Part shown: positions 37,904 through 56,776 of the stretch, one piece after another
How the letters are laid out: each line of letters opens with the position of its first letter
How positions within the stretch are numbered: position 1 is the stretch's first letter
Notes under the pieces: generated by a model
Told to the model about the DNA's origin: nothing
Databases searched by the model: none
Seen by the model: the letters and a program-made list of their open reading frames with translations, nothing else
Origin: Gammaproteobacteria bacterium
Lineage (GTDB): Bacteria; Pseudomonadota; Gammaproteobacteria; Acidiferrobacterales; UBA6901
Direction: 5' to 3'
Assembly (NCBI GenBank): GCA_028068195.1
Contig: JAPTTX010000030.1
Span: 26,231 to 90,230, forward strand
Length of the DNA stretch: 64,000 nucleotides
Position numbers and translations under genes: made by a program

Positions 37904-38989
37904 CTAATCCGCCTTCCGACCGGGCCCGGTCCGATCATCGGACTCGCCCCGCTTCTGCAACCGGGCGGCGCCGTTCAATCTCTTGCCGAGGCCGGCCGCG
38001 GTGCCTTCCAGCGCCACGTTGAACCCGTGGCGCTTCCAGCCCACCATGCCGTCGCCAACGAGCAATGCCTGGGTGAAGCCCGCCGCACGCAGCAGTTCCA
38101 CGGCTTTCCCGGACATGCGGTTGGTGCGGCAGATGACGGCGAGCGGGTATTCCCGCCGCTGCTCGAGCTCGAGCAAACGCCGCGGCAGGTCATCGAGCGG
38201 GATATTGATCGAGCCGGCGATGTGGCCGAGATCACCGGTAAAGTCCGCGACCGGCCGTACGTCTAACACCGGGAGTTCTTCGTTCCGGTCGAGACGTTGC
38301 TTGAGTTCAGCGCTCGAAATTGTCCCGGTGGGCGCACCGGGCCTGGCGCGAAGCCGCTTTAGCAGGTTTGGCAGGAAGGCGGCAATGCCGATCAGCGTTA
38401 TTGCCATCAGCCCCTTATGGATCAGGCCCTGGCCGCCGGATGCAGCTTCCCGGCCGGCATAGCCGAGATAGGTGTAGGCGAGCGCCCCGGGAAGCATGAA
38501 CACATAAGTGCCGACCACGTAAGCCAGCAGACCGATGCGGGTGAGTCCCAGCGCATAGTTGAGCAGATTGAACGGGAACAGAGGCACCAGGCGCACAAAC
38601 GCGACGAAGCGCCAGCCCTCCTGCTCCACGCCCTGAATGAGCTGCCTGGTCCAGCCGCCGGCGCGGCGATGTATCCAGCCGGATGCCAGGTAGCGCGCAA
38701 CCAGAAATGCAATTGTGGCGCCGACAGTAGCGCCGGTGAGGCTGTACAATGTACCCCACACGGGCCCGAAGAGCGCGCCGCCCGCCAGTGACAGCACGGC
38801 GCCAGGCAGGAAGAGCACGGCCGCGGCGGCATATGCCGCCATGAAGAGGAACGGCGCGAAAGTGCCGCTGGCGGCGATGCGTGAGCGCAGCGCCGCTGTA
38901 TCGAGCCAGCCATGATGAAGGAATGCAATCGCGATCGCCGCCAAGAGCGCGGCAAAGAGGGCAGTGCGTGCAACGATCCGGCGTGTCAT
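37904..38989 (-). CDS. TVP38/TMEM64 (DedA-type) membrane protein fused to a C-terminal rhodanese domain
   Basis: The N-terminal multi-TM region has the SNARE-associated pattern. The C-terminal 'LPVLDVRP...GHIAGSINIP...AVICRTNRMSGKA' is rhodanese with an active-site Cys. There is an ATGA overlap with the upstream gene. Confidence 0.8.
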   Translation of the reverse strand: MTRRIVARTALFAALLAAIAIAFLHHGWLDTAALRSRIAASGTFAPFLFMAAYAAAAVLFLPGAVLSLAGGALFGPVWGTLYSLTGATVGATIAFLVARYLASGWIHRRAGGWTRQLIQGVEQEGWRFVAFVRLVPLFPFNLLNYALGLTRIGLLAYVVGTYVFMLPGALAYTYLGYAGREAASGGQGLIHKGLMAITLIGIAAFLPNLLKRLRARPGAPTGTISSAELKQRLDRNEELPVLDVRPVADFTGDLGHIAGSINIPLDDLPRRLLELEQRREYPLAVICRTNRMSGKAVELLRAAGFTQALLVGDGMVGWKRHGFNVALEGTAAGLGKRLNGAARLQKRGESDDRTGPGRKAD

Positions 38990-39837
38990 GAGGGACGGTT
39001 CCATGCGCGGCGGTTGATGGCGTAGCCGGTGATACGTCCGAGGAATGGCAGGACCAACATGCCCGGCAGGTCGTTCACGAGCCTCGGCGCGCGGTAATCC
39101 CGGATGCCGAGGGTCATGGCCTCGTGGCCGGCGTCGGGCTGCGCCATGTAGGTGCCGAGCAGCCGGTCCCAGAGCGAGAGGTTGAAGCCGAAGTTGCTGT
39201 TCGCCTCTCGGTCCTCGACCGAATGATGCACCCGGTGCATGTCGGGGGTGACGATGAACAGGCGCAACGCGCGATCAAGCGCGATCGGCAGACGCAGGTT
39301 GCCGTGGTTGAACATGGCCGTCGCATTCAATACCACCTCGAAGATCACCACCGCCACGGCCGGCGCACCGATGACCGCGATGACCGCGAATTTGATGAGC
39401 ATCGATAGCAGGATCTCGATCGGATGAAAACGCGCACCGGTCGTGACGTCATAGTCGAGGTCGGCGTGGTGCATGCGGTGCAGCCGCCAGAGGATAGGCA
39501 CGGCATGAAACATGACGTGCTGCAGGTAGATGGCAAGATCAAGGATGACGATCGACCCGAGGACGGCGACCCAGAAGGGTGCTGCGACCAGGTTGAAGAG
39601 GCCCCAACCATGGGCTGTCGCGCTCATCGCGCAGCCCACCGCGGCTGCCGGGAACAGCAGCCGCAACACAACGCTGTTGAGGAACACGATCCCGAGGTTG
39701 CTGGTCCAGCGGCGTACCCTCGACACACTGAGTGTCCGCCTCGGCGCCGCCAGCTCGAGGAATATCATAACGATCAATACCCCGAAAAATGCCCCCAGCC
39801 GGATAACCTGCGCCTGATCCATGATTATTTCCGACAT
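38986..39837 (-). CDS. Fatty acid hydroxylase / sterol desaturase superfamily membrane di-iron oxygenase
   Basis: His boxes 'HVMFH', 'HRMHHAD' and 'HRVHHS' are present. GGAG lies 7 nt upstream of the ATG at 39837. Confidence 0.85.
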   Translation of the reverse strand: MSEIIMDQAQVIRLGAFFGVLIVMIFLELAAPRRTLSVSRVRRWTSNLGIVFLNSVVLRLLFPAAAVGCAMSATAHGWGLFNLVAAPFWVAVLGSIVILDLAIYLQHVMFHAVPILWRLHRMHHADLDYDVTTGARFHPIEILLSMLIKFAVIAVIGAPAVAVVIFEVVLNATAMFNHGNLRLPIALDRALRLFIVTPDMHRVHHSVEDREANSNFGFNLSLWDRLLGTYMAQPDAGHEAMTLGIRDYRAPRLVNDLPGMLVLPFLGRITGYAINRRAWNRPS

Positions 39838-39895
39838 AAAGATCTCCAAACTTGGAAAGAATACGCGATCGATTGGTAATGCGGCGGCCGATCTG

Positions 39896-39925
39896 CTAGT
39901 ATTCAATAATTCAATTGAATACTAG
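39896..39925. promoter_or_regulatory. Perfect 12-6-12 inverted repeat, candidate ArsR-family operator
   Basis: CTAGTATTCAAT-aattca-ATTGAATACTAG lies in the 104-nt divergent intergenic region between the hydroxylase gene and the ArsR-rhodanese gene. Confidence 0.55.
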
Positions 39926-39941
39926 TTATATCGTGAGCGTC

Positions 39942-40616
39942 ATGTCAAGCCCGGATGTGAAGCAACGGCTCTACGGCGAGATCGCCCGGATCGGGAAAGC
40001 AGTGTGTCATGGCTACCGCCTGGAGTTGCTGGAGTACCTTGCGCAAGGGGAGCGGACCGTAGAGTCACTAGCCAGGCTCGCAGGTCTTTCGGTTGCGAAC
40101 ACCTCCCAGCATCTTCGCAGCCTGCGCCAAGGCGGGCTGGTATCCGCGCGCAAGGATGGCCAGTACGTGTACTACATGCTGGCGGACGACGAAGTCATCC
40201 GCCTGCTCGCGAGCATGCGCAAACTGGCCGAAGCACACCTTGCGGAAGTCGAGCGGCTGGTCCGCTCCTACCTGACCGTCAAGGACGATCTCGAGCCCGT
40301 CCCGCGCGCCGAGTTGCTCGACCGTGCACGGCAAGGGCTCGTGACCGTCGTGGATGTTCGACCCGAAGAAGAATATGCGTCCGGCCACGTTCCGGGCGCC
40401 ATGAATTTGCCGATCAGGAATCTTGAGCAGAAACTCCGGGATTTGCCACATGACCAGGAAATCGTCGCCTATTGCCGCGGCCCGCACTGCGTGCTCGCCT
40501 ATGACGCGGTAGCGCGGCTGCGTCGGGAGGGGTTCCAGGCGCGGCGCCTGGAGGGTGGCTTCCCGGAATGGCGTGAAGCGGGCATGCCGGTGGAAATCGC
40601 AAGTTCCAGGAAATGA
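39942..40616 (+). CDS. ArsR/SmtB-family transcriptional regulator fused to a rhodanese domain
   Basis: Winged HTH 'RLELLEYLAQGERTVESLARLAGLSVANTSQHLRSLRQGGLV'. The C-terminal rhodanese domain is 'VVDVRPEEEYASGHVPGAMNLP...AYCRGPHC'. The ATG at 39942 is preferred because the TTG at 39915 sits inside the palindrome. Confidence 0.85.
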   Translation: MSSPDVKQRLYGEIARIGKAVCHGYRLELLEYLAQGERTVESLARLAGLSVANTSQHLRSLRQGGLVSARKDGQYVYYMLADDEVIRLLASMRKLAEAHLAEVERLVRSYLTVKDDLEPVPRAELLDRARQGLVTVVDVRPEEEYASGHVPGAMNLPIRNLEQKLRDLPHDQEIVAYCRGPHCVLAYDAVARLRREGFQARRLEGGFPEWREAGMPVEIASSRK

Positions 40617-40719
40617 ACGTGCCGCGAGCGTTGGGCGTAAGCCCGGGCACGCTGCTGTCCCAGGCGGCAGGACTCTTGAGCGGATATAAATGGTGGGATG
40701 CTTATCGGCAAGCAGCGAC

Positions 40720-41322
40720 ATGCATTCGAACCCAGTTTTTTCACGCCTTGCCATTGCGTTTCTCGCAGCAAGCCTGCTGCTCGGCTGGGTTCCCGCAGCT
40801 GCGGGCTCAGCGGGTCCGCAGCTGGCCCGGCGCTGGTCGCTTGTGACGCCCGAAGGGCTGGCGGTAGAGTTTGTCCAGCGTCCCCTGGACCTGACCGAGG
40901 CGTTCTTCCAGGGGCGCGGCTTCACTCCCGCCGTATCGCGGCAAATCGCCAATGCCTGCGTGCTGGCGGTCGTTGTCAGTAATCGCTCGGCTTCGACGAT
41001 CTTCCGGGTCGATCTCGGCGATTGGCGGGTACAGGGGCGGGACGTTCGGCCGCAGCAGCTGCGCCTCGACGCCGACTGGCAGCGAGCATGGAAGAGAATG
41101 CGGATCGCGCGGGCACAAAGGATTGCCTTCCGGTACGCTATGCTGCCGACCCGGCAAGTGCTTCGACCGGGGGACCGGTTGCAGGGAATGATCACTACCA
41201 ACCTCAGCACAGGCCAGCGCTTCGATATGAACATCCGGTGGGAGGCAAACGGCGAGCCCGGACAGGCCTGGCTGCGCGGTCTGGCCTGTGCGATGCCGTC
41301 ACAGCGGGGAAATCGGCCATGA
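40720..41322 (+). CDS. Secreted hypothetical protein
   Basis: Signal peptide 'MHSNPVFSRLAIAFLAASLLLGWVPAAAG'. The stop overlaps the tlpA-like start (ATGA). Confidence 0.55.
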   Translation: MHSNPVFSRLAIAFLAASLLLGWVPAAAGSAGPQLARRWSLVTPEGLAVEFVQRPLDLTEAFFQGRGFTPAVSRQIANACVLAVVVSNRSASTIFRVDLGDWRVQGRDVRPQQLRLDADWQRAWKRMRIARAQRIAFRYAMLPTRQVLRPGDRLQGMITTNLSTGQRFDMNIRWEANGEPGQAWLRGLACAMPSQRGNRP

Positions 41323-41876
41323 TAGCCCGTTATGTCGCGGCCCTAGCGGCGGCGGTTTGGCTGACAGCCGTGCCCGGCTCCTCTGCCGCCGTGGTAGGTC
41401 CGAATGCACAGCCCGTCGCCGCAAATTTCTCGCTCAAGGATCTCAACGGGAAGGTGCGCCGGCTCTCCGATTACCGTGGCAAGCTGGTCATCGTCAACTT
41501 CTGGGCGACATGGTGTCCGCCTTGCGAACGGGAGATACCATCGATGGAGCGAACGTATCGGAAATTCAAACATCGCGGCCTTGTGATTCTGGGCATCGAG
41601 GAAGGTGAGGGCTGGGAGACGGTGGAGCCGGTGGCAGAGCAGATGAAAATCACCTACCCGGTTCTGCTCGATCGTGATGCGTCGGTCAGCCGCAGGTACA
41701 AAATTATCGGGCTGCCTACCAGTTATCTGATCGATCCACGGGGACGCATCGTCGATGTTCTGGTCGGCGGCAGAAACTGGACGAACCCAGGTCTTCGTGC
41801 CCGCCTCGCCCGGCTGTTGCCGGGTCCGTCCCGGGAGCGCGCAGGGCTCCACGCCAAACCGCCACGCCGACCCTGA
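41319..41876 (+). CDS. TlpA/ResA-family periplasmic thiol:disulfide oxidoreductase
   Basis: Signal/anchor sequence plus 'VNFWATWCPPCEREIP' (thioredoxin CxxC). Confidence 0.85.
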   Translation: MIARYVAALAAAVWLTAVPGSSAAVVGPNAQPVAANFSLKDLNGKVRRLSDYRGKLVIVNFWATWCPPCEREIPSMERTYRKFKHRGLVILGIEEGEGWETVEPVAEQMKITYPVLLDRDASVSRRYKIIGLPTSYLIDPRGRIVDVLVGGRNWTNPGLRARLARLLPGPSRERAGLHAKPPRRP

Positions 41877-42089: not shown

Positions 42090-45000
42090 ATGTCCTCCTC
42101 GGTCGAAGTCATCATCATAGGAGCCGGACCCGCTGGGGTTTCGGCGGCGCTGCGACTGGCGCGTGCTGGTGTATCCGTGATGCTGATCGAGGGCGCGGAG
42201 TATGCCGGCGCGGAGAACTGGTCCGGCTGCGTCTACCATGCCGAAGGCCTGCTGCGTGAAGATGTGCTGGGGCAGGAGCTGTGGCGTCAGGCACCGAAGG
42301 AGCGCCGCATTATTGGCCGCAGCCTGTTCCTGCATGACGGCATCAACGCGGGCGGATTCGAGGCGCGGGCCCATGCCGGCAATGATTTTGGCGAGGCGTG
42401 GACGGTCCTGCGTCCCAAGCTCGACCGCTGGCTGGCAAGCCGCGCCGTCGACTTCGGCGTTACGCTGATCACTGCCACGACCGCAACCGGCCTACGCTAT
42501 CGCGGGGACCGCGTCATTGGTGTCAATACTGACCGCGGACCGATCAGCGCCGATGTGGTATTTATCGCGGAAGGCGATGCGGCCGGGCTCCTGGCCCGTG
42601 AAGGGCTGGAGCGGAGCCGGAATCCGCATTACGCCCAGGGCATCATGGCGCTATTCCGTCTGTCGCCGGCGGAGATTGAGAGGCGCTTCCGGCTGAATCC
42701 TGGAGAGGGGGTGGCGCAGGAATGGATGGTGCGTAACGGCCAGTTTGCCGGCCGCACGGTTCGGGTCAACATGACTGCCTTCCTGTACACGAACGAGGAC
42801 TCTCTGTCCCTGGGCCTGGTGCTTCCGCTCGAGCGCCTCGCGCAAGAGGCGGTTGCCGATCATCCGCACCTGTTCGAGCGCGTACGCAAGCTGCCCGTCA
42901 TTGCATCGTACCTCGAAGGCGCACAGCAGATCGCCTATGGTGCCAAGGTGATCCGCTCCGGCGGAATTGACGAGACTCCGCAATGGGTGCGGGACGGGCT
43001 GGCTGTCGGCGGCGGCAGCCTCGGCCTGGGACAGGAGGTGCCCTATCCAAACTTCATCGCCCCCGCCATTACCAGCGCCCTGACTTTTGCTGACGCGGTT
43101 TTGCGCATTCGCGGCAAGGGGGCTGACTACACCCGTGCGGAGCTGGAAATCGAGTACGCCGAGGCCCTGCGCCGAACCACAGATTTTCGAAACGCCACGC
43201 TGATACGGCGCTGGCCGCGCGCGATTCATGGCGGGCCAGCCCTGTTCGACCACCTGCCTGCCATTCTGGGCCAGATGATAGATGCTAGCCATCTGGCGCC
43301 CAGTGCGGCGCGCGCTCAGCGGCGGCGCGCGTTGGGCGTGGAGCTGGCCCGCTTGCGCCGCGATTCCGCCCAGCTGCTGCGCCTGGCGCGCGGTTTTGGC
43401 CCGCGCCTGCATGCGGACCAAGCGGCACCGCCCCTGCACGTGCAATTCCTGGTGGCCCGCGCTGGCGCCAAGCCGGCCCCGGCCGCATCCCAAGAGGATC
43501 CTCTGATGGCGCTGGCCGGTGAGGTGATCGGCCATTTCTACGGTCGGCGGCTACCGGCATTCGCCGACCGTGTGGCGATGGTCTGGCGCAGCATGGCGCG
43601 CCTGCCGCTTTTGGTGCCTCGGGTGGCGGGTCTGGGACTAAGTGCGCTCTATGGCGGCGCGGCGCTGCTCGGCGACCTCGCGGCGTATCGCATGGGCCAC
43701 GTGCGCCTGCGGGCACTGCAGCAGCGACCCTATTACCGCTATGACGAAAGCGCGCGCATCGGGCTCGACTGGGGCGATGCACGCCGAAGCGCCGCATCGC
43801 CAACGACCTGGATCGCCCCGCTCGTGCGTTATCGGCCCGACCTGCGGCATGTGACCGTTTCCCTGGACCTGGGCGCTACTGCCAAGCAGCTGCGCAACGT
43901 CTGTCCGGCAGAGGTCTATGGTCTGGCCGGCCAATTCGGCGGTGTATCGAGCCAGCACGAAAACTGCATAAAGTGCGAATCCTGTCGCGTGACTGTGCCC
44001 GGCGTGGACTGGAACCGAACCAGTGGCCACCGGTTTGCCTACCGCGTGCCGGGAGACGGGCGCAGTGGCCCGGATTCCTCCGTGACCTCGACGCTCGATC
44101 CGCTTCCGGAAAAGCCGCTGATCCTGGCCGAATCCGAGGGCAGCCGCTGGCAGCGTCTGTACCAGTCGCTGCGGGCACGGCCGTCGACGGTGAGCGCGGA
44201 ATGGCCACGTGTATGGGCGGGGCTCCTGAAGGAGATGTCCGATAGTGAGCTGACACGCCCGACAGTCGTGCGCCTCGAGTCCTGGCTGCAGCGCCATGCC
44301 TACGGTTGGATGGAAGCCGAAGTGCGCGCGCTGCTTGAGCAGGCGCACATGGTACCCGCCGACTGGCCCAGCGTGCGTACCAGGCAGTCGCACGCCCTCC
44401 TGCGCAGCATCCACGGTTGGGAGCGGCTGAAGGAGGATTTTCCGGAAAAAAAACTCAAGGCGCTCGCACTTACGACCTGGGACCCCGGTAGCCGGCGCGT
44501 GCTCCACGCCTGGATCGCCGCGGCCCGCAGCCACCGCGTGGCTGCCGTGGAGTGGCTGGCTGCCTGGTCGGGTGCCCTGGCATGGATCACTGCCGGGCAC
44601 TACCTGGCCGAAGCCGTCGCCGGACACCCGATCACGGATGTCCTGGCTGCACCACTGTGGCGTGAGCAAGACGGGGCTTCAAACTGGATACCGGCTGTCG
44701 CCGAGCAGCTTATCGATGCCCGCGGCGATGTCTGGCCCGCCGGCGAAATTATCGCGCACGGTGCCGGCGCCGACGCCGCCCAGCCCGTGCGCCGACGTGT
44801 CGACAAGGGTCTAGGCGAATTCTGTGCGACGACCGTGGTTGCCGAGTTGATCCTGGCGCTGGCGCGTGGACAGGCGGCGGTTTTGCGCCGCAGAGCGCTG
44901 GACTATGCCTCCGCGCGCGTGCAGTTCCGTGGCGACCTACGCGACAGCGAGGGGCGCGAGAGCATCGCCAAATTCGGTGCCGTGAAACAGATGCTGGCAG

Positions 45001-52863: not shown

Positions 52864-54600
52864 ATGCGGATTTCGGTCGCCGCGCACACGACTTTGTCAC
52901 AGATGTTCCTGGCGCGTATCGAGGATACGCCGCATAAGCCGGCCTACCGCCAGTATTACCCCGATCCCGGCGCCCTCCGGGACACCAGCCGCGGCCATTG
53001 GCGGGATATCACCTGGGAACAGGCGGGGCATGAAGTGGGACGCTGGCGGGCGGCACTGCGTAGCGAGGGGCTCAGGCCCGGAGACCGGGTGGCGCTGTGT
53101 ATGCGAAACCGGGTCGAGTGGGTCCTGTTTGATCAGGCGGCCCTAGGCCTCGGGCTGGTCGTGGTGCCGCTGTTCTACAATGACAGGCCAGACAACATGG
53201 CCTGGTGCATGAATGATGCTGGCGTGCGCCTTTTGCTCCTGGAGGACGGCCAGCTGTGGCGCGTCCTGCACAACCAGGTGCCGATGCTGGCGCGTGTAGT
53301 CTGTATCCACAGCGCCCCGGCGGACGATGGCACCGCAGTTGCGGTATCCTCCTGGCTACCGGCGCAGGGCGAGTCGCTGGATCCCGGTCCCGCGCGCGCC
53401 GCAGACTTGGCAACCCTGGTCTACACCTCGGGCACAACCGGGCGGCCGAAAGGTGTGATGCTGAGTCACCGCAATGTCGCAAGCAACGTCAGCGCCAGCC
53501 TCGATGCCGTGCCTACCGTAAATGCGGATGACATCTTCCTGTCCTTCCTGCCGCTGTCGCACATGTTCGAACGTACTGTCGGTTATTATCTGTCTCTCTG
53601 CATCGGAGCCCGCACCGTTTTTGCGCGCGGTATACCGGAACTGTCGGAAGATTTGCTGAGCCAGCGTCCGACGGTGCTAGTATGCGTACCGCGCATCTTC
53701 GAGCGCATCTACGCGCGCATGCAGGAGAGCCTGCCGCCATACTCGCTCCGGCGCCGTCTTTTCGATTTGTCGGTGGACATCGGGTGGCGGCGGTTTACTG
53801 GGCAGGTGCGGGTCCGAGACAGACTGCTGTGGCCCGTGCTTGACATACTCGTTGCACGCAAACTGCGACAACGCCTCGGGGGGCGCATGCGGCTGGCAGT
53901 CTCGGGCGCTGCTGCGCTCGCGCCACAGCTGTCGCGCACATTTCTGGGGCTCGGATTGCCTCTGCTCCAGGGGTATGGCCTTACCGAGTTTTCGCCCGTC
54001 GTGAGCTGCAACCGCCTCGGTGACAACGACCCCTTGTCGGTTGGACGACCGGTCACCGGAATCGAGGCCAGAACCCTCGACAACGGCGAACTTGTGGTGC
54101 GCGGTCCGGCAGTAATGCTCGGTTACTGGAACAATACGGCCGCCACATCCGCCGTGATCGACGGCGACGGCTGGTTGCATACGGGAGATATTGCGCGCAT
54201 CGAAGGCGGGCGAATTTATATCGTCGGACGTGCCAAGGAGATTATCGTGCTCAGCAATGGCGAGAAAGTGCCGCCGGCGGATGCCGAACAGATGATCATG
54301 CTCGATCCGATCTTCCAGCAGGTAATGGTGGTGGGTGAAGGCCGTCCCCATCTGGGTCTTCTGGTAGTGAGCGCGCTTGCCGACGAACGCGCCCTGTGCC
54401 AGAGAGCCAATGACCAGCTTCGGTCCTTTCCGGGATATGCGCGTGTGCGCCACATTGCGCGAATCTCCGAGCCGTGGACGGTCGAGAATCATCTGCTCAC
54501 GCCGACGCTTAAGCTGCGCAGGAACAAGATCGAAGAGCGTTTTTCCAGGGAAATCGAGGAAATGTACCGCGATCGGGATCTATGCCACGACTCCCGGTGA
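52864..54600 (+). CDS. Long-chain acyl-CoA synthetase (AMP-forming)
   Basis: 'LVYTSGTTGRPKGVMLSHRN' is the AMP-binding motif. 'GYGLTE' and 'GWLHTGDIA' are present. The gene starts 3 nt after the fadJ stop. Confidence 0.9.
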   Translation: MRISVAAHTTLSQMFLARIEDTPHKPAYRQYYPDPGALRDTSRGHWRDITWEQAGHEVGRWRAALRSEGLRPGDRVALCMRNRVEWVLFDQAALGLGLVVVPLFYNDRPDNMAWCMNDAGVRLLLLEDGQLWRVLHNQVPMLARVVCIHSAPADDGTAVAVSSWLPAQGESLDPGPARAADLATLVYTSGTTGRPKGVMLSHRNVASNVSASLDAVPTVNADDIFLSFLPLSHMFERTVGYYLSLCIGARTVFARGIPELSEDLLSQRPTVLVCVPRIFERIYARMQESLPPYSLRRRLFDLSVDIGWRRFTGQVRVRDRLLWPVLDILVARKLRQRLGGRMRLAVSGAAALAPQLSRTFLGLGLPLLQGYGLTEFSPVVSCNRLGDNDPLSVGRPVTGIEARTLDNGELVVRGPAVMLGYWNNTAATSAVIDGDGWLHTGDIARIEGGRIYIVGRAKEIIVLSNGEKVPPADAEQMIMLDPIFQQVMVVGEGRPHLGLLVVSALADERALCQRANDQLRSFPGYARVRHIARISEPWTVENHLLTPTLKLRRNKIEERFSREIEEMYRDRDLCHDSR

Positions 54601-54635: not shown

Positions 54636-55616
54636 TCAGTCTGCATCGTGGTTTCGCGCGGATTCGCGAAACATCATCTGGTGCCGCACCAGCTCCGCCT
54701 GGTCCAGCAGGAATACGCTTTCGTCGCCGCTGCGCGTGCAAAGCCACAGGAACGGCACGCGCGGAAAGCGTTGTTCCAGCGCCTCGCGGCTGTTTCCCAC
54801 TTCCACGACCAAGATTCCGCCGGGCGCGAGGTGCTCATCGGCTTGCGCTAGAATGCGGGCGATCGCATCGAGACCATCGGGTCCCGAGGCGAGCGCGAGC
54901 CCCGGTTCGTGGCGGTACTCCTCCGGCAGCGACGCCAGCTCACCGGCCGGTACGTATGGCGGATTGCTGACGATGAGGTCATATCGTTCTCCGGCAAGAC
55001 TGCCAAACAGGTCTGAACGTACCAGGCGTATCCTTCCCTCCAGGCTGTAGGCGGCGACGTTGATCCGGGCCACCTCCAGGGCGTCCACCGAAACATCCGC
55101 CGCATCCAGCGTTGCGTGTGGGAAGGCCTTCGCAACTGCTACCGCGATGCAGCCACTGCCGGTACACAGGTCCAGCGCCCGGCGCACATTGACTGCCTCG
55201 ATCCACGGCTGGAATTGTTCCAGGACGAATTCTCCGATCAGGGATCGCGGCACGATGACGCGTTCGTCCACGTAAAATCTGAGGCCCGCGAACCATGCCT
55301 CACGCAACAGGTATGCCGCCGGCTTGCGCGTGCTGATGCGCATTTCAACGATCCGCCGCGCAGCGGCAACGCGGGAAGGATCCGCAATGCGATCGAGTTC
55401 GCTGTCGAGGTCGGCCGGCGCCACGCCGATAGCCGAGCCAACGAGCCACGCTGCCTCATCGAGGGCGTTGTCGGTACCGTGTCCGTATGCGACGCCAGCC
55501 TTGAGCAGCTGGCGTTCACTCCAAAGCACCAGCTGGCGCACGGTTGTAGATTGCCGGTGGGATCGTGTGCTCATGACGAGCGCGGATTGTACGGCATCGG
55601 CCGGTGGGTTTGCCAT
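54636..55616 (-). CDS. prmB: Ribosomal protein L3 N5-glutamine methyltransferase
   Basis: 'DLCTGSGCIAVA' is the SAM motif, and 'IVSNPPYVP' (NPPY) is present with a PrmB-type N-terminal domain. The start could instead be the internal ATG at 55574. Confidence 0.85.
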   Translation of the reverse strand: MANPPADAVQSALVMSTRSHRQSTTVRQLVLWSERQLLKAGVAYGHGTDNALDEAAWLVGSAIGVAPADLDSELDRIADPSRVAAARRIVEMRISTRKPAAYLLREAWFAGLRFYVDERVIVPRSLIGEFVLEQFQPWIEAVNVRRALDLCTGSGCIAVAVAKAFPHATLDAADVSVDALEVARINVAAYSLEGRIRLVRSDLFGSLAGERYDLIVSNPPYVPAGELASLPEEYRHEPGLALASGPDGLDAIARILAQADEHLAPGGILVVEVGNSREALEQRFPRVPFLWLCTRSGDESVFLLDQAELVRHQMMFRESARNHDAD

Positions 55617-55708: not shown

Positions 55709-56776
55709 ATGAGCGAGCTGTTTTCGTTTTTGGAGTTACGTGGATTGCGGTTAAAGAACCGCATCTTCGTTTCACCCATGTGTCAGTACTCGGCGCCAGA
55801 GGGGCTCGCCAACTCCTGGCATCTGGTGCACCTTGGCAGTCGTGCGGTCGGTGGTGCAGCCCTGGTTATGACAGAAGCCGCGGCAGTAAGCCCGGCTGGC
55901 CGCATTTCGCCGCAGGACCTCGGAATCTGGTCGCGGTCGCACGCCGACGCGCTAGCCCCGGTTGCACGCTTTATCAGTGAGCACGGTGCGGTGCCTGCCA
56001 TACAGCTTGCGCATGCCGGGCGCAAGGCGTCGACCGATGAACCGTGGCGGGGGGGCGGACCGGTGCGCCCGGACGGAGGCGGGTGGCAGCCCCTGGCGCC
56101 CAGCCCGGTATCCTTTGCGCCGAATTCACCGGTACCCGCAGCGCTCACCATCGCCGATATCGACCGCGTTGTCGGAGAGTTTGCCGATGCGGCGCGCCTC
56201 AGCCTGCACGCCGGATTCAGGGTAGCGGAAATACACATGGCGCATGGCTACCTGCTGCATGAATTTTTGTCGCCGATCAGCAACCGGCGGGACGACGAAT
56301 ATGGTGGCAGCCTGGATAACCGGATGCGGTTCCCGTTGCGCGTCGCACGCGCAGTGCGTGAGGCGTGGCCCGAGGACCTGCCGGTGTTCGTGCGCATATC
56401 CGCCACGGACTGGGTCGATGGCGGATGGGATCTTGGCCAGTCGATACAGTTGGCGCTCCGCCTCAAAAGGGCCGGAATCGACTTCATTGACTGTTCCAGC
56501 GGCGGTCTGGTGCCGGACGCGCGAGTTCCCGCAGGTCCTGGATTCCAGGTTCCGTTTGCGACCGCGGTCAAGAGCGGGGCCGGGATTTCCGTCGGCGCGG
56601 TGGGGCTAGTTACTGGCGCATTCCAGGCCGAGCAGATTGTCGCGACCGGCCTCGCTGATGCGGTACTGCTCGCGCGGCAACTGTTGCGCGATCCGTATTG
56701 GCCGCTGCATGCTGCGCGTTCCCTTGGTGTCGATCTGCCTTGGCCGGTGCAGTACGAGAGGGCGAAGCTTCGCTGA
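55709..56776 (+). CDS. NADH:flavin oxidoreductase, Old Yellow Enzyme family (NamA/YqjM-like)
   Basis: 'LKNRIFVSPMCQYS', 'IQLAHAGRKAS' and 'EIHMAHGYLLHEFLSP' are OYE hallmarks. Confidence 0.9.
   Translation: MSELFSFLELRGLRLKNRIFVSPMCQYSAPEGLANSWHLVHLGSRAVGGAALVMTEAAAVSPAGRISPQDLGIWSRSHADALAPVARFISEHGAVPAIQLAHAGRKASTDEPWRGGGPVRPDGGGWQPLAPSPVSFAPNSPVPAALTIADIDRVVGEFADAARLSLHAGFRVAEIHMAHGYLLHEFLSPISNRRDDEYGGSLDNRMRFPLRVARAVREAWPEDLPVFVRISATDWVDGGWDLGQSIQLALRLKRAGIDFIDCSSGGLVPDARVPAGPGFQVPFATAVKSGAGISVGAVGLVTGAFQAEQIVATGLADAVLLARQLLRDPYWPLHAARSLGVDLPWPVQYERAKLR

Follow-up and report, generated by a model that had tools for sequence, protein, structure and literature searches.

A predicted single-chain acyl-CoA:quinone oxidoreductase encoded by a fused gene of Acidiferrobacterales

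One polypeptide carries the modules of an acyl-CoA-to-quinone relay

We analysed a 64,000-nucleotide stretch of DNA (the window; contig JAPTTX010000030.1, positions 26,231 to 90,230) from a metagenome-assembled genome (MAG) of a gammaproteobacterium of the order Acidiferrobacterales, and focus here on a single gene of the forward strand (42090..49394). Its product joins in one chain, in the order FixC-FixX-ACAD'-ACAD-EtfB-EtfA, a FixCX-type quinone reductase, an acyl-CoA dehydrogenase (ACAD) preceded by a non-catalytic relative (ACAD'), and both parts of an electron-transfer flavoprotein (ETF). We read this protein as a self-contained, non-bifurcating acyl-CoA:quinone oxidoreductase that would feed electrons from the initial oxidation of beta-oxidation straight into the quinone pool, and we put the probability of this reading at roughly 0.7. 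It draws on the modules and their order, the motifs conserved and lost, the distribution of the family and the operon context, from which we infer which way electrons flow, which quinone receives them, the range of substrates, the geometry of the pseudo-dimer and whether transfer takes place within or between chains. A preliminary description of this DNA had proposed such a relay; the intact GxGxxG motif of FixC, the four cysteines of the iron-sulfur (FeS) module, Glu1695 of the ACAD, the FAD-binding motifs of EtfA and the operon all support it.

The open reading frame (ORF) starts with ATG, runs for 2434 codons with zero internal stops and is by far the longest of the region (ORFs in other frames within it reach at most 398 aa). 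The protein has a computed mass of 264.1 kDa and is identical in sequence to GenBank MDA8363115.1, titled "MAG: FAD-binding protein [Gammaproteobacteria bacterium]"; database names are similarly generic across the fusion family. The frame is thus single and uninterrupted, as the preliminary description had it, and independent profile or structure matches bear out all six of its modules in the order it gave. Its module borders fared unevenly: that of the FeS cysteines (nt 43902-43985) is exact, and modules 5 and 6 had been drawn somewhat too short, being better placed at aa ~1850-2160 and 2165-2425. Three features were missing from it, namely the linker between the FixC and FeS modules, a helical insertion in the ACAD, and an extra domain resembling one of very-long-chain acyl-CoA dehydrogenase (VLCAD) (Table 1).

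Pfam and NCBIfam, applied to the window protein itself, detect the FixC-type part, the middle and C-terminal domains of the ACAD and the FAD domain of EtfA; Pfam gives no match to the FixX, ACAD' and EtfB modules on the window protein alone. Because these three modules are invisible to direct Pfam and NCBIfam searches, they were tested separately with family profiles and structure prediction. Invariant residues were called on a family alignment of 31 sequences (A1), and AlphaFold2 (AF2) models were built from 30-row alignments. Invariant cofactor-binding and catalytic residues are restricted to FixC, the FeS module, ACAD', ACAD and domain II of EtfA.

Table 1. Features of the fusion gene and of the operon that it heads (window positions).
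Feature	Coordinates	Strand	Basis or remark
Whole fusion gene	42090..49394	+	2434 aa; GenBank MDA8363115.1
Module 1, FixC/YdiS-type FAD-dependent ETF:quinone oxidoreductase, aa 1-425	42090..43364	+	PRK10015, 7koe_C
Family-specific linker, aa 426-582	43365..43835	+	no detectable homologue; invariant Y484
Module 2, FixX/ETF-QO-type ferredoxin module, one [4Fe-4S] site, aa 583-650	43836..44039	+	C605, C626, C629, C632
Module 3, ACAD', non-catalytic ACAD-like pseudo-subunit, aa ~700-1050	44187..45239	+	family HMM, motifs
Module 4, catalytic VLCAD-like ACAD, aa ~1110-1712	45417..47225	+	Pfam, family profile, AF2 model
All-helical insertion of ~130 aa, aa ~1243-1380	45816..46229	+	DSSP helices 539-676 of model; family-specific
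Extra helical domain after ACAD, aa 1721-1840	47250..47609	+	weak likeness to repeated ACAD C-terminal domain
Module 5, EtfB-like scaffold (ETF domain III), aa ~1850-2160	47637..48569	+	family HMM, AF2 model; nucleotide loop degenerate
Module 6, EtfA-like (domain I and FAD-binding domain II), aa ~2165-2425	48582..49364	+	Pfam ETF_alpha, Foldseek
Thiolase (acetyl-CoA C-acyl/acetyltransferase, nearest FadI type)	49521..50819	+	PRK08170, 650.8 bits against a cutoff of 593
FadJ/FadB-like enoyl-CoA hydratase / 3-hydroxyacyl-CoA dehydrogenase	50759..52861	+	
FadD-like fatty-acid--CoA ligase	52813..54600	+	

The fusion recurs co-linearly in several phyla

A giant ORF in a metagenome-assembled genome could be spurious, the product of an error in assembly or binning or of a frameshift that has run separate genes together. 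We rejected this explanation, which we regard as having next to no chance of being right, because the fusion is found with its modules in the same order in many independent assemblies and in several phyla. In a word-indexed protein search the identical protein turned up on three contigs, together with some 60 homologues (41-75% identity) that are full-length and co-linear; the MAGs they come from bear the names Acidiferrobacterales, Acidiferrobacteraceae or Acidiferrobacter. The same search returned many further proteins of 2300-2800 aa, ~30% identical and with the names Nitrospirae, Leptospirillia, Verrucomicrobiae or Betaproteobacteria; these dozens of more distant relatives, like the closer ones, come from independent samples and share the module order and the conserved linkers. 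The survey of co-linear homologues and their taxonomic spread that the preliminary description had called for yields a sizeable set in Acidiferrobacterales and a wider family of 2300-2900 aa beyond it. Within the gene, coding periodicity (GC content ~0.7, ~0.5 and ~0.75 at the first, second and third codon positions) is unbroken in every 100-codon window, all module junctions included.

A HMMER search with a family profile of the middle of the protein (aa 700-1480) against 1.84 billion cluster representatives gave 147 matches, 54 of them at E <= 1e-30; about 45 are 2000-2900 aa long and the remainder resemble truncated fragments. One family cluster occurs on 13 contigs. Among the matches listed in reference genomes, full-length genes lie in MAGs of Proteobacteria, Verrucomicrobiia and Nitrospirota. 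That pattern scan was dominated by the generic ACAD motif IYEGTNE, and among the matches listed only L001-L008 are loci of the family. The fusion family is rare, at about 50 clusters among these representatives, yet present in several phyla, with a concentration in Acidiferrobacterales and in Nitrospirota/Leptospirillia, lineages known mostly as chemolithoautotrophs.

The N-terminal modules resemble FixC and FixX

Module 1, first described as a FixC/YdiS-type FAD oxidoreductase, earns that description. It matches NCBIfam PRK10015 (E 3e-42 over aa 5-398) and FixC (E 5e-40), in both cases far below the equivalog cutoffs, and FixC of the Thermotoga maritima EtfABCX complex (7koe_C), which the family profile finds at E 1e-53 over profile positions 1-425. 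Judged by its sequence matches, the module is of FixC type and not a eukaryote-type ETF:quinone oxidoreductase (ETF-QO), since the window protein itself matches 7koe_C at E 3e-23 over aa 4-349 and pig ETF-QO (2gmh) at E 1e-8 over aa 234-329 only. The Rossmann motif IIIGAGPAG occupies aa 8-16, with GxGxxG at aa 11-16, and the glycines G11, G13 and G16 of this FAD site are invariant.

The linker that separates the FixC and FeS modules (~160 aa) is kept throughout the family and is moderately hydrophobic, with no clear transmembrane helix. A linker hidden Markov model (HMM; aa 400-585) had zero matches among ~3200 ORFs of the collected loci. Just downstream of the linker, at the start of the FeS module, lies an invariant histidine (H587).

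The four cysteines that had suggested a FixX/YdiT-like ferredoxin segment (C605, C626, C629 and C632) are invariant in 31/31 sequences and form the only conserved Cys columns of the entire fusion protein. The segment matches FixX of T. maritima (7koe_D) at E 1e-3 over CPAxVY...CxxCxxC, and Pfam Fer4_ETF_QO, detected in distant members of the family, maps onto aa 583-642; the assignment of the preliminary description is thereby upheld. A cysteine of the second FixX motif is substituted in the fusion (CRVTVP versus CRIVCP).

ACAD' and ACAD have lost complementary motifs

Module 3 had been noted as an ACAD-like module lacking the catalytic signature, and the family HMM agrees: built on aa 700-1060, it matches ordinary ACADs of unrelated loci (E 5e-10 to 1e-6) across the middle and C-terminal domains, and the catalytic Glu of YEGT is absent from the module. 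ACAD' keeps the R-QF-G and AGQxFGGxAYSE...YRDA motifs, with R943-x-Q945-F946 and A1012-G-Q-x-x-G1017-G1018...S-E...Y1031-R-D1033 invariant. Its beta-domain is strongly reduced in the AF2 model of aa 700-1720.

Module 4 is a full ACAD, as had been claimed from its three motifs. TEPAAGSD (aa 1385-1392), WITNGS (aa 1502-1507) and IYEGTNEVQ, which contains the catalytic E1695, correspond to the family-invariant TEPxAGSD, WITNG and RRDxRxLNIYE1695GTNExQ. Pfam places Acyl-CoA_dh_M and Acyl-CoA_dh_1 at aa 1487-1707 of the window protein, and ACAD_N is located at aa 1165-1242 through homologues. The best solved relatives of the ACAD, by family profile, are VLCAD and ACAD9 (E 1e-58). The AF2 model of aa 700-1720 (predicted local distance difference test score, pLDDT, 85.6; predicted template-modelling score, pTM, 0.83) matches ACADs of ~380 aa in Foldseek with a TM(target) of 0.72-0.80.

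In ACAD dimers, as seen in structures of medium-chain acyl-CoA dehydrogenase (MCAD), the R-x-QFG and Q-x-x-GG-x-G-Y motifs touch the FAD of the partner subunit. Alignment with canonical ACADs reveals that the two modules of the fusion have divided these elements between them: ACAD' keeps R-x-QFG and Q-x-x-GG-x-G-Y, and the catalytic ACAD keeps YEGT and is without the trans-acting motifs RxQFG and QxxGGxGY, the corresponding sites reading "VWLKDSQL" and "ENLYGPDAA". A similar division is known from CasC (Rhodococcus jostii) and the ChsE/FadE alpha2beta2 ACADs, tandem or heteromeric enzymes in which the catalytic Glu resides in one partner and a single FAD binds at the interface; CasC is a tandem ACAD with a non-catalytic N-terminal and a catalytic C-terminal domain (PMC8399759), the same order as ACAD'-ACAD and with likewise complementary motif loss. 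Given this complementary loss, and by analogy with CasC/ChsE, we take ACAD' and ACAD to pair within the chain as a pseudo-dimer that has one FAD and one active site. ACAD' is accordingly best read, from its motifs, as a pseudo-subunit that would complete the FAD site of the catalytic ACAD rather than as a dead duplicate. The pTM of 0.83 obtained for the model of both modules fits a defined packing of ACAD' against ACAD, and the geometry of the pair would be that of a pseudo-dimer. The likeness to CasC/ChsE has its bounds: no close sequence kinship was shown, the beta-domain of ACAD' is much reduced, and those enzymes take steroid side chains and use a separate ETF.

The catalytic ACAD carries two elaborations that are conserved across the family. 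The all-helical insertion sits between the ACAD N-domain and the TEPAAGSD-bearing beta-domain, and the beta-domain itself is enlarged at aa ~1400-1480; one possibility is that the ETF head or FixCX docks on these parts. The extra helical domain that follows the ACAD (aa 1721-1840) weakly resembles the repeated ACAD C-terminal domain of VLCAD and of ~580-aa bacterial ACADs. Matches to 2z1q and 3owa run to profile positions ~1840 and so cover this domain, and an HMM built on it ('cterm') matches at E ~1e-5.

The ETF modules disfavour flavin-based bifurcation

The EtfB-like region of the window sequence has no Pfam match, and a single-sequence phmmer search of aa 1721-2167 against the PDB came back empty. 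An HMM of the family segment (aa 1850-2165) matches stand-alone EtfBs of ~260 aa (E 1e-23 to 4e-13), and Pfam ETF (PF01012) can be placed at aa 1878-2024 through distant members. In Foldseek, the AF2 model of aa 1721-2434 (pLDDT 87.8, pTM 0.76) retrieves alpha chains of ETF at E ~1e-17 and its beta chains at E 1e-8 to 1e-6, so that the EtfB-like module of the preliminary description is recovered by profile and by structure alike. Its EtfA-like module at the C-terminal end is recovered both by this Foldseek match and by Pfam ETF_alpha (aa 2288-2371, E 4.5e-17), and the EtfA segment HMM matches stand-alone EtfA at E 8e-36. The motifs for the electron-transferring FAD (ET-FAD) of EtfA are intact (T2331/R2332, QIGQTG 2346-2351, SGAPQH 2365-2370, N2384 and D2386) and hold one of the clusters of family-invariant residues, S2365 through H2370 included.

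As a secondary suggestion, the preliminary description had entertained a bifurcating or confurcating variant. Such an enzyme, of the FixABCX/EtfABCX or Bcd-EtfAB type, would couple NADH and ferredoxin or flavodoxin to enoyl-CoA/acyl-CoA and quinone. The nearest solved relatives of the two N-terminal modules lend it some support, both belonging to the membrane-associated, bifurcating T. maritima EtfABCX (7koe), in which the ETF is docked on the FixCX quinone reductase: its FixC is the best solved relative of module 1, and its FixX is the sole significant solved relative of the FeS segment. That complex, which we take to contain two clusters and a bifurcating FAD (Bf-FAD), consists of four separate subunits and includes no ACAD. 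FixX of bifurcating Fix systems carries two [4Fe-4S] binding motifs (PMC6085437), against four conserved cysteines in total, and hence one cluster rather than two, in the fusion.

The EtfB nucleotide site tells in the same direction. We take an GRQAIDGDTAQVG-like loop in EtfB to be the signature of Bf-FAD binding. The loop, which binds the nucleotide of AMP or Bf-FAD, reads GRQAIDGDTAQVGP in a stand-alone EtfB (locus L042) and is unrecognisable in the fusion, which reads FGCAAASTRDHIFVAGM at this place; two family members (P0061 and P0085) have a 7-residue deletion there. Stand-alone EtfBs from the collected loci served as comparators for this loop, and no motifs that distinguish bifurcating from canonical ETFs were found in accessible papers. 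Across aa 1778-2295, which spans the EtfB-like module and domain I of EtfA, the 31-sequence alignment contains no invariant residue. From its sequence, the ETF base (EtfB together with the N-terminal parts of EtfA) looks free of cofactor. Canonical ETF alpha chains score slightly higher with the EtfA profile than bifurcating ones do; the best solved alpha chain for the family profile is the canonical human one (126 bits, against 92.7-108.9 for chains of bifurcating complexes). The operon, finally, contains neither a ferredoxin nor a flavodoxin gene. The single Cys4 set, the degenerate or deleted EtfB loop, the lack of invariant residues in aa 1778-2295 and the better score on canonical ETF alpha together disfavour bifurcation, which we consider highly improbable.

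Operon context and proposed mechanism

In Acidiferrobacterales the fusion gene is the first of a beta-oxidation operon with genes for a thiolase and for FadJ-like and FadD-like proteins. The thiolase gene begins 127 nt past the fusion gene on the same strand, and the subsequent genes overlap. The same three genes stand behind the fusion gene in L001 (73% identity) and, with overlapping stop and start codons and a different upstream region, in an Acidiferrobacteraceae member (P0036, 44% identity). FadA-FadB lie immediately upstream of the fusion gene in L004; in a Verrucomicrobiae locus FadB-FadA lie 6 kb off, and genes for a glycerophosphodiester phosphodiesterase and a GlpD-like protein adjoin it. 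A promoter and terminator scan around the operon of the window found no signal beyond chance.

For an acyl-CoA:quinone oxidoreductase we propose the following course of electrons, with predicted cofactors of 3 FAD and 1 [4Fe-4S] per chain. The VLCAD-like ACAD, with Glu1695 as the base, would oxidise an acyl-CoA, probably of medium or long chain, and reduce its FAD, while ACAD' would complete the FAD site in trans, the two modules pairing within the chain into a pseudo-dimer with one active site. Single electrons would then reach the FAD that the EtfA-like head domain carries, a domain seated on a base of EtfB-like and EtfA N-terminal parts that appears to be without a second flavin. A swing of the head domain, usual for ETF, would hand them to the single [4Fe-4S] of the FixX-like module, from which they would go on to the FAD of FixC and then to a membrane quinone.

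The relay might instead run in reverse or serve another substrate, as a (mena)quinol-driven enoyl-CoA reductase or as a dehydrogenase that acts on a different acyl-CoA or on an acyl-carrier thioester. The chemolithoautotrophic Nitrospirota/Leptospirillia, whose copies have no adjacent fad genes, would be candidates above all. There the gene stands alone in conserved housekeeping surroundings (obg-proB ... pgi, cbb3 oxidase; L082 and L085), as it stands alone in L081, and the large family-specific insertions of the ACAD point the same way; E. coli ydiO/ydiQRST-type systems, moreover, have been discussed in either direction. Set against this are the Acidiferrobacterales operon, whose acyl-CoA ligase, thiolase and hydratase/dehydrogenase point to catabolism, and the ACAD itself, which has an MCAD-type catalytic Glu and finds its best matches in VLCAD/ACAD9 and other bona fide dehydrogenases. 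The established redox potentials also make it thermodynamically unfavourable for ubiquinol to reduce enoyl-CoA. We consider the reverse or other-substrate alternative unlikely.

Several observations weigh against reading the fusion as an acyl-CoA:quinone oxidoreductase. The predicted quinone site rests on FixC homology and on a match to Pfam ETFQO_UQ-bd (aa 230-288, E 1e-3) whose 20.1 bits fall short of the cutoff of 27.7. No credible transmembrane helix or membrane anchor was found in the fusion protein, the top 19-aa Kyte-Doolittle mean being 1.65 and lying within globular domains, so any membrane contact would need to be peripheral; ETF-QO and FixC are peripheral membrane proteins. A profile-profile comparison (hhalign) of ACAD' with the catalytic ACAD was insignificant (E 0.16, with only the GG-Y...RRD motif aligned), and ACAD' was for that reason compared with canonical ACADs instead. 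The Nitrospirota/Leptospirillia copies and the unassigned P0061 contig are without nearby fad genes, and all members of the family come from MAGs or metagenomes.

Two pairs of loci share surroundings of their own. In a Leptospirillia and a Nitrospirae genome (L082 and L085) the fusion gene occupies the same slot after rplU-rpmA-obg-proB, near pgi and a cbb3-type oxidase. In L081 (P0061) and L084 (P0085, Verrucomicrobiae) a divergent DUF4139 gene lies upstream, and genes for a glycerophosphodiester phosphodiesterase and a GlpD-like (DAO+DAO_C) dehydrogenase lie downstream, which suggests a phospholipid-catabolism neighbourhood.

Comparison with known systems

The fusion is a complete fusion of a known relay in which two modules have degenerated, and not a new category of enzyme. 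The E. coli-type sets YdiO plus YdiQRST, or FixABCX, draw on the same five protein families, there as five separate proteins with FadI/FadJ/FadK-type partners; the N-terminal module of the fusion has PRK10015/FixC as its best NCBIfam matches, and the downstream partners are nearest to FadI and FadJ types. In contrast to those sets, the fusion has all five in one chain, an extra pseudo-ACAD and a degenerate EtfB nucleotide site, and all of its NCBIfam scores are far under the equivalog cutoffs. The mitochondrial relay of VLCAD/ACAD9, ETF and ETF-QO has the same logic of flow (ACAD FAD to ETF FAD to one [4Fe-4S] to FAD to quinone). VLCAD/ACAD9 supply the best solved matches of the ACAD, extra C-terminal helical domain included, human ETF alpha is the best alpha chain, and the one-cluster layout C-x20-C-x2-C-x2-C of the fusion resembles that of ETF-QO. 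The mitochondrial system differs in comprising three diffusible or membrane-bound proteins and in its VLCAD, which is a homodimer and not a pseudo-dimer; the quinone reductase of the fusion, for its part, is of FixC type.

The functions joined here had been described beforehand as normally residing in separate proteins. This holds for the complete set, in that a full-text literature search, with subscription-only journals largely outside its scope, turned up no description of a fusion of ACAD, whole ETF and FixCX. It does not hold for parts of the set, as partial fusions have been published (PMC12042025, PMC12288474, PMC8399759). The Sulfolobus acidocaldarius ETF (SaETF) has EtfB followed by EtfA in one chain, next to genes for an ACAD and for FixCX/ETF-QO (PMC12042025); it differs from the fusion in being bifurcating, having two FADs and remaining unfused to its partners. 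Fusobacterium nucleatum BCR, part of a butyryl-CoA:O2 oxidoreductase, consists of Bcd, the C-terminal domain of EtfA and a rubredoxin (PMC12288474). Like the fusion, BCR joins an ACAD to an ETF FAD domain and a downstream FeS carrier, and an intramolecular electron relay is implied. At ~650-720 aa, however, it retains domain II alone of the ETF and lacks EtfB, the domain I base and a pseudo-ACAD, and its electrons go to the rubredoxin and a flavodiiron protein (O2) instead of to FixCX and quinone. The EtfB-then-EtfA order and ACAD-EtfA fusions are thus functional in characterised enzymes (PMC12042025, PMC12288474), which supports the reading as an acyl-CoA:quinone oxidoreductase. The collected loci also contain two ORFs with the BCR architecture (ACAD N/M/C, ETF_alpha FAD domain and rubredoxin; 646-722 aa), one in a Fusobacteriaceae MAG (L044:9302-11467) and one in Allobaculum mucilyticum (L047:9518-11455).

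The fusion is probably the first recognised natural enzyme to hold the complete three-protein relay of beta-oxidation (an ACAD with its pseudo-subunit, a whole ETF and a FixCX-type reductase) as one polypeptide, at a fixed 1:1:1 stoichiometry. Its ETF base would then have shrunk to a cofactor-free scaffold, and the protein would offer a ready-made single particle in which to see the ETF head shuttle between dehydrogenase and quinone reductase. To our knowledge, two sources alone show how ETF turns from its donor, ACAD, to its acceptor, ETF-QO/FixCX: separate binary complexes and the structure of the bifurcating EtfABCX. We know of no structure in which ETF is seen with both its donor and the quinone reductase. 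With its fixed stoichiometry, a natural relay in a single chain would suit cryo-EM and kinetics directed at this question.

As a Rosetta-stone fusion, the protein would also confirm FixCX-type proteins as physiological acceptors of bacterial ACAD-ETF pairs. The complementary decay of ACAD' and ACAD, together with the apparent loss of the EtfB nucleotide site, would illustrate how fusion relaxes constraints on formerly independent subunits. In engineered strains, the gene might serve as a compact part, a single gene, that links (reverse) beta-oxidation with the quinone pool. Its stand-alone occurrence in Nitrospirota/Leptospirillia raises the question of what role acyl-CoA oxidation plays in presumed autotrophs. 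We expect the fusion to interest specialists in flavoenzymes and bioenergetics, chiefly as a single-particle system and for its presence in presumed lithoautotrophs.

Other genes of the window

Upstream of the fusion gene, at a distance of 214 nt, lies a gene for a ResA/TlpA-like thiol:disulfide oxidoreductase (AhpC/TSA fold; 41022-41876, +) with an N-terminal extension of ~110 aa; a ResA/TlpA-like gene is found upstream in L001 too. A 388-aa ORF on the opposite strand (40068-41234, -) has no Pfam match and is kept in the syntenic L001 at 45-65% identity. Beyond it come a gene of the fatty-acid-hydroxylase family (38986-39906, -) and one for a fusion of VTT(DedA) and rhodanese domains (37904-39004, -), both lipid- or membrane-related and near the beta-oxidation operon.

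Just past the operon is a gene for an OYE/NamA-like NADH:flavin oxidoreductase of 355 aa (55709-56776, +), with a divergent gene for a small methyltransferase (54636-55616, -) in between. Both are syntenic in L001, and the Acidiferrobacteraceae locus L083 retains only the methyltransferase at this place. Near the start of the window, at 1789-6195 (+), a gene encodes a 1468-aa multi-PAS/GAF/GGDEF/EAL signalling protein.

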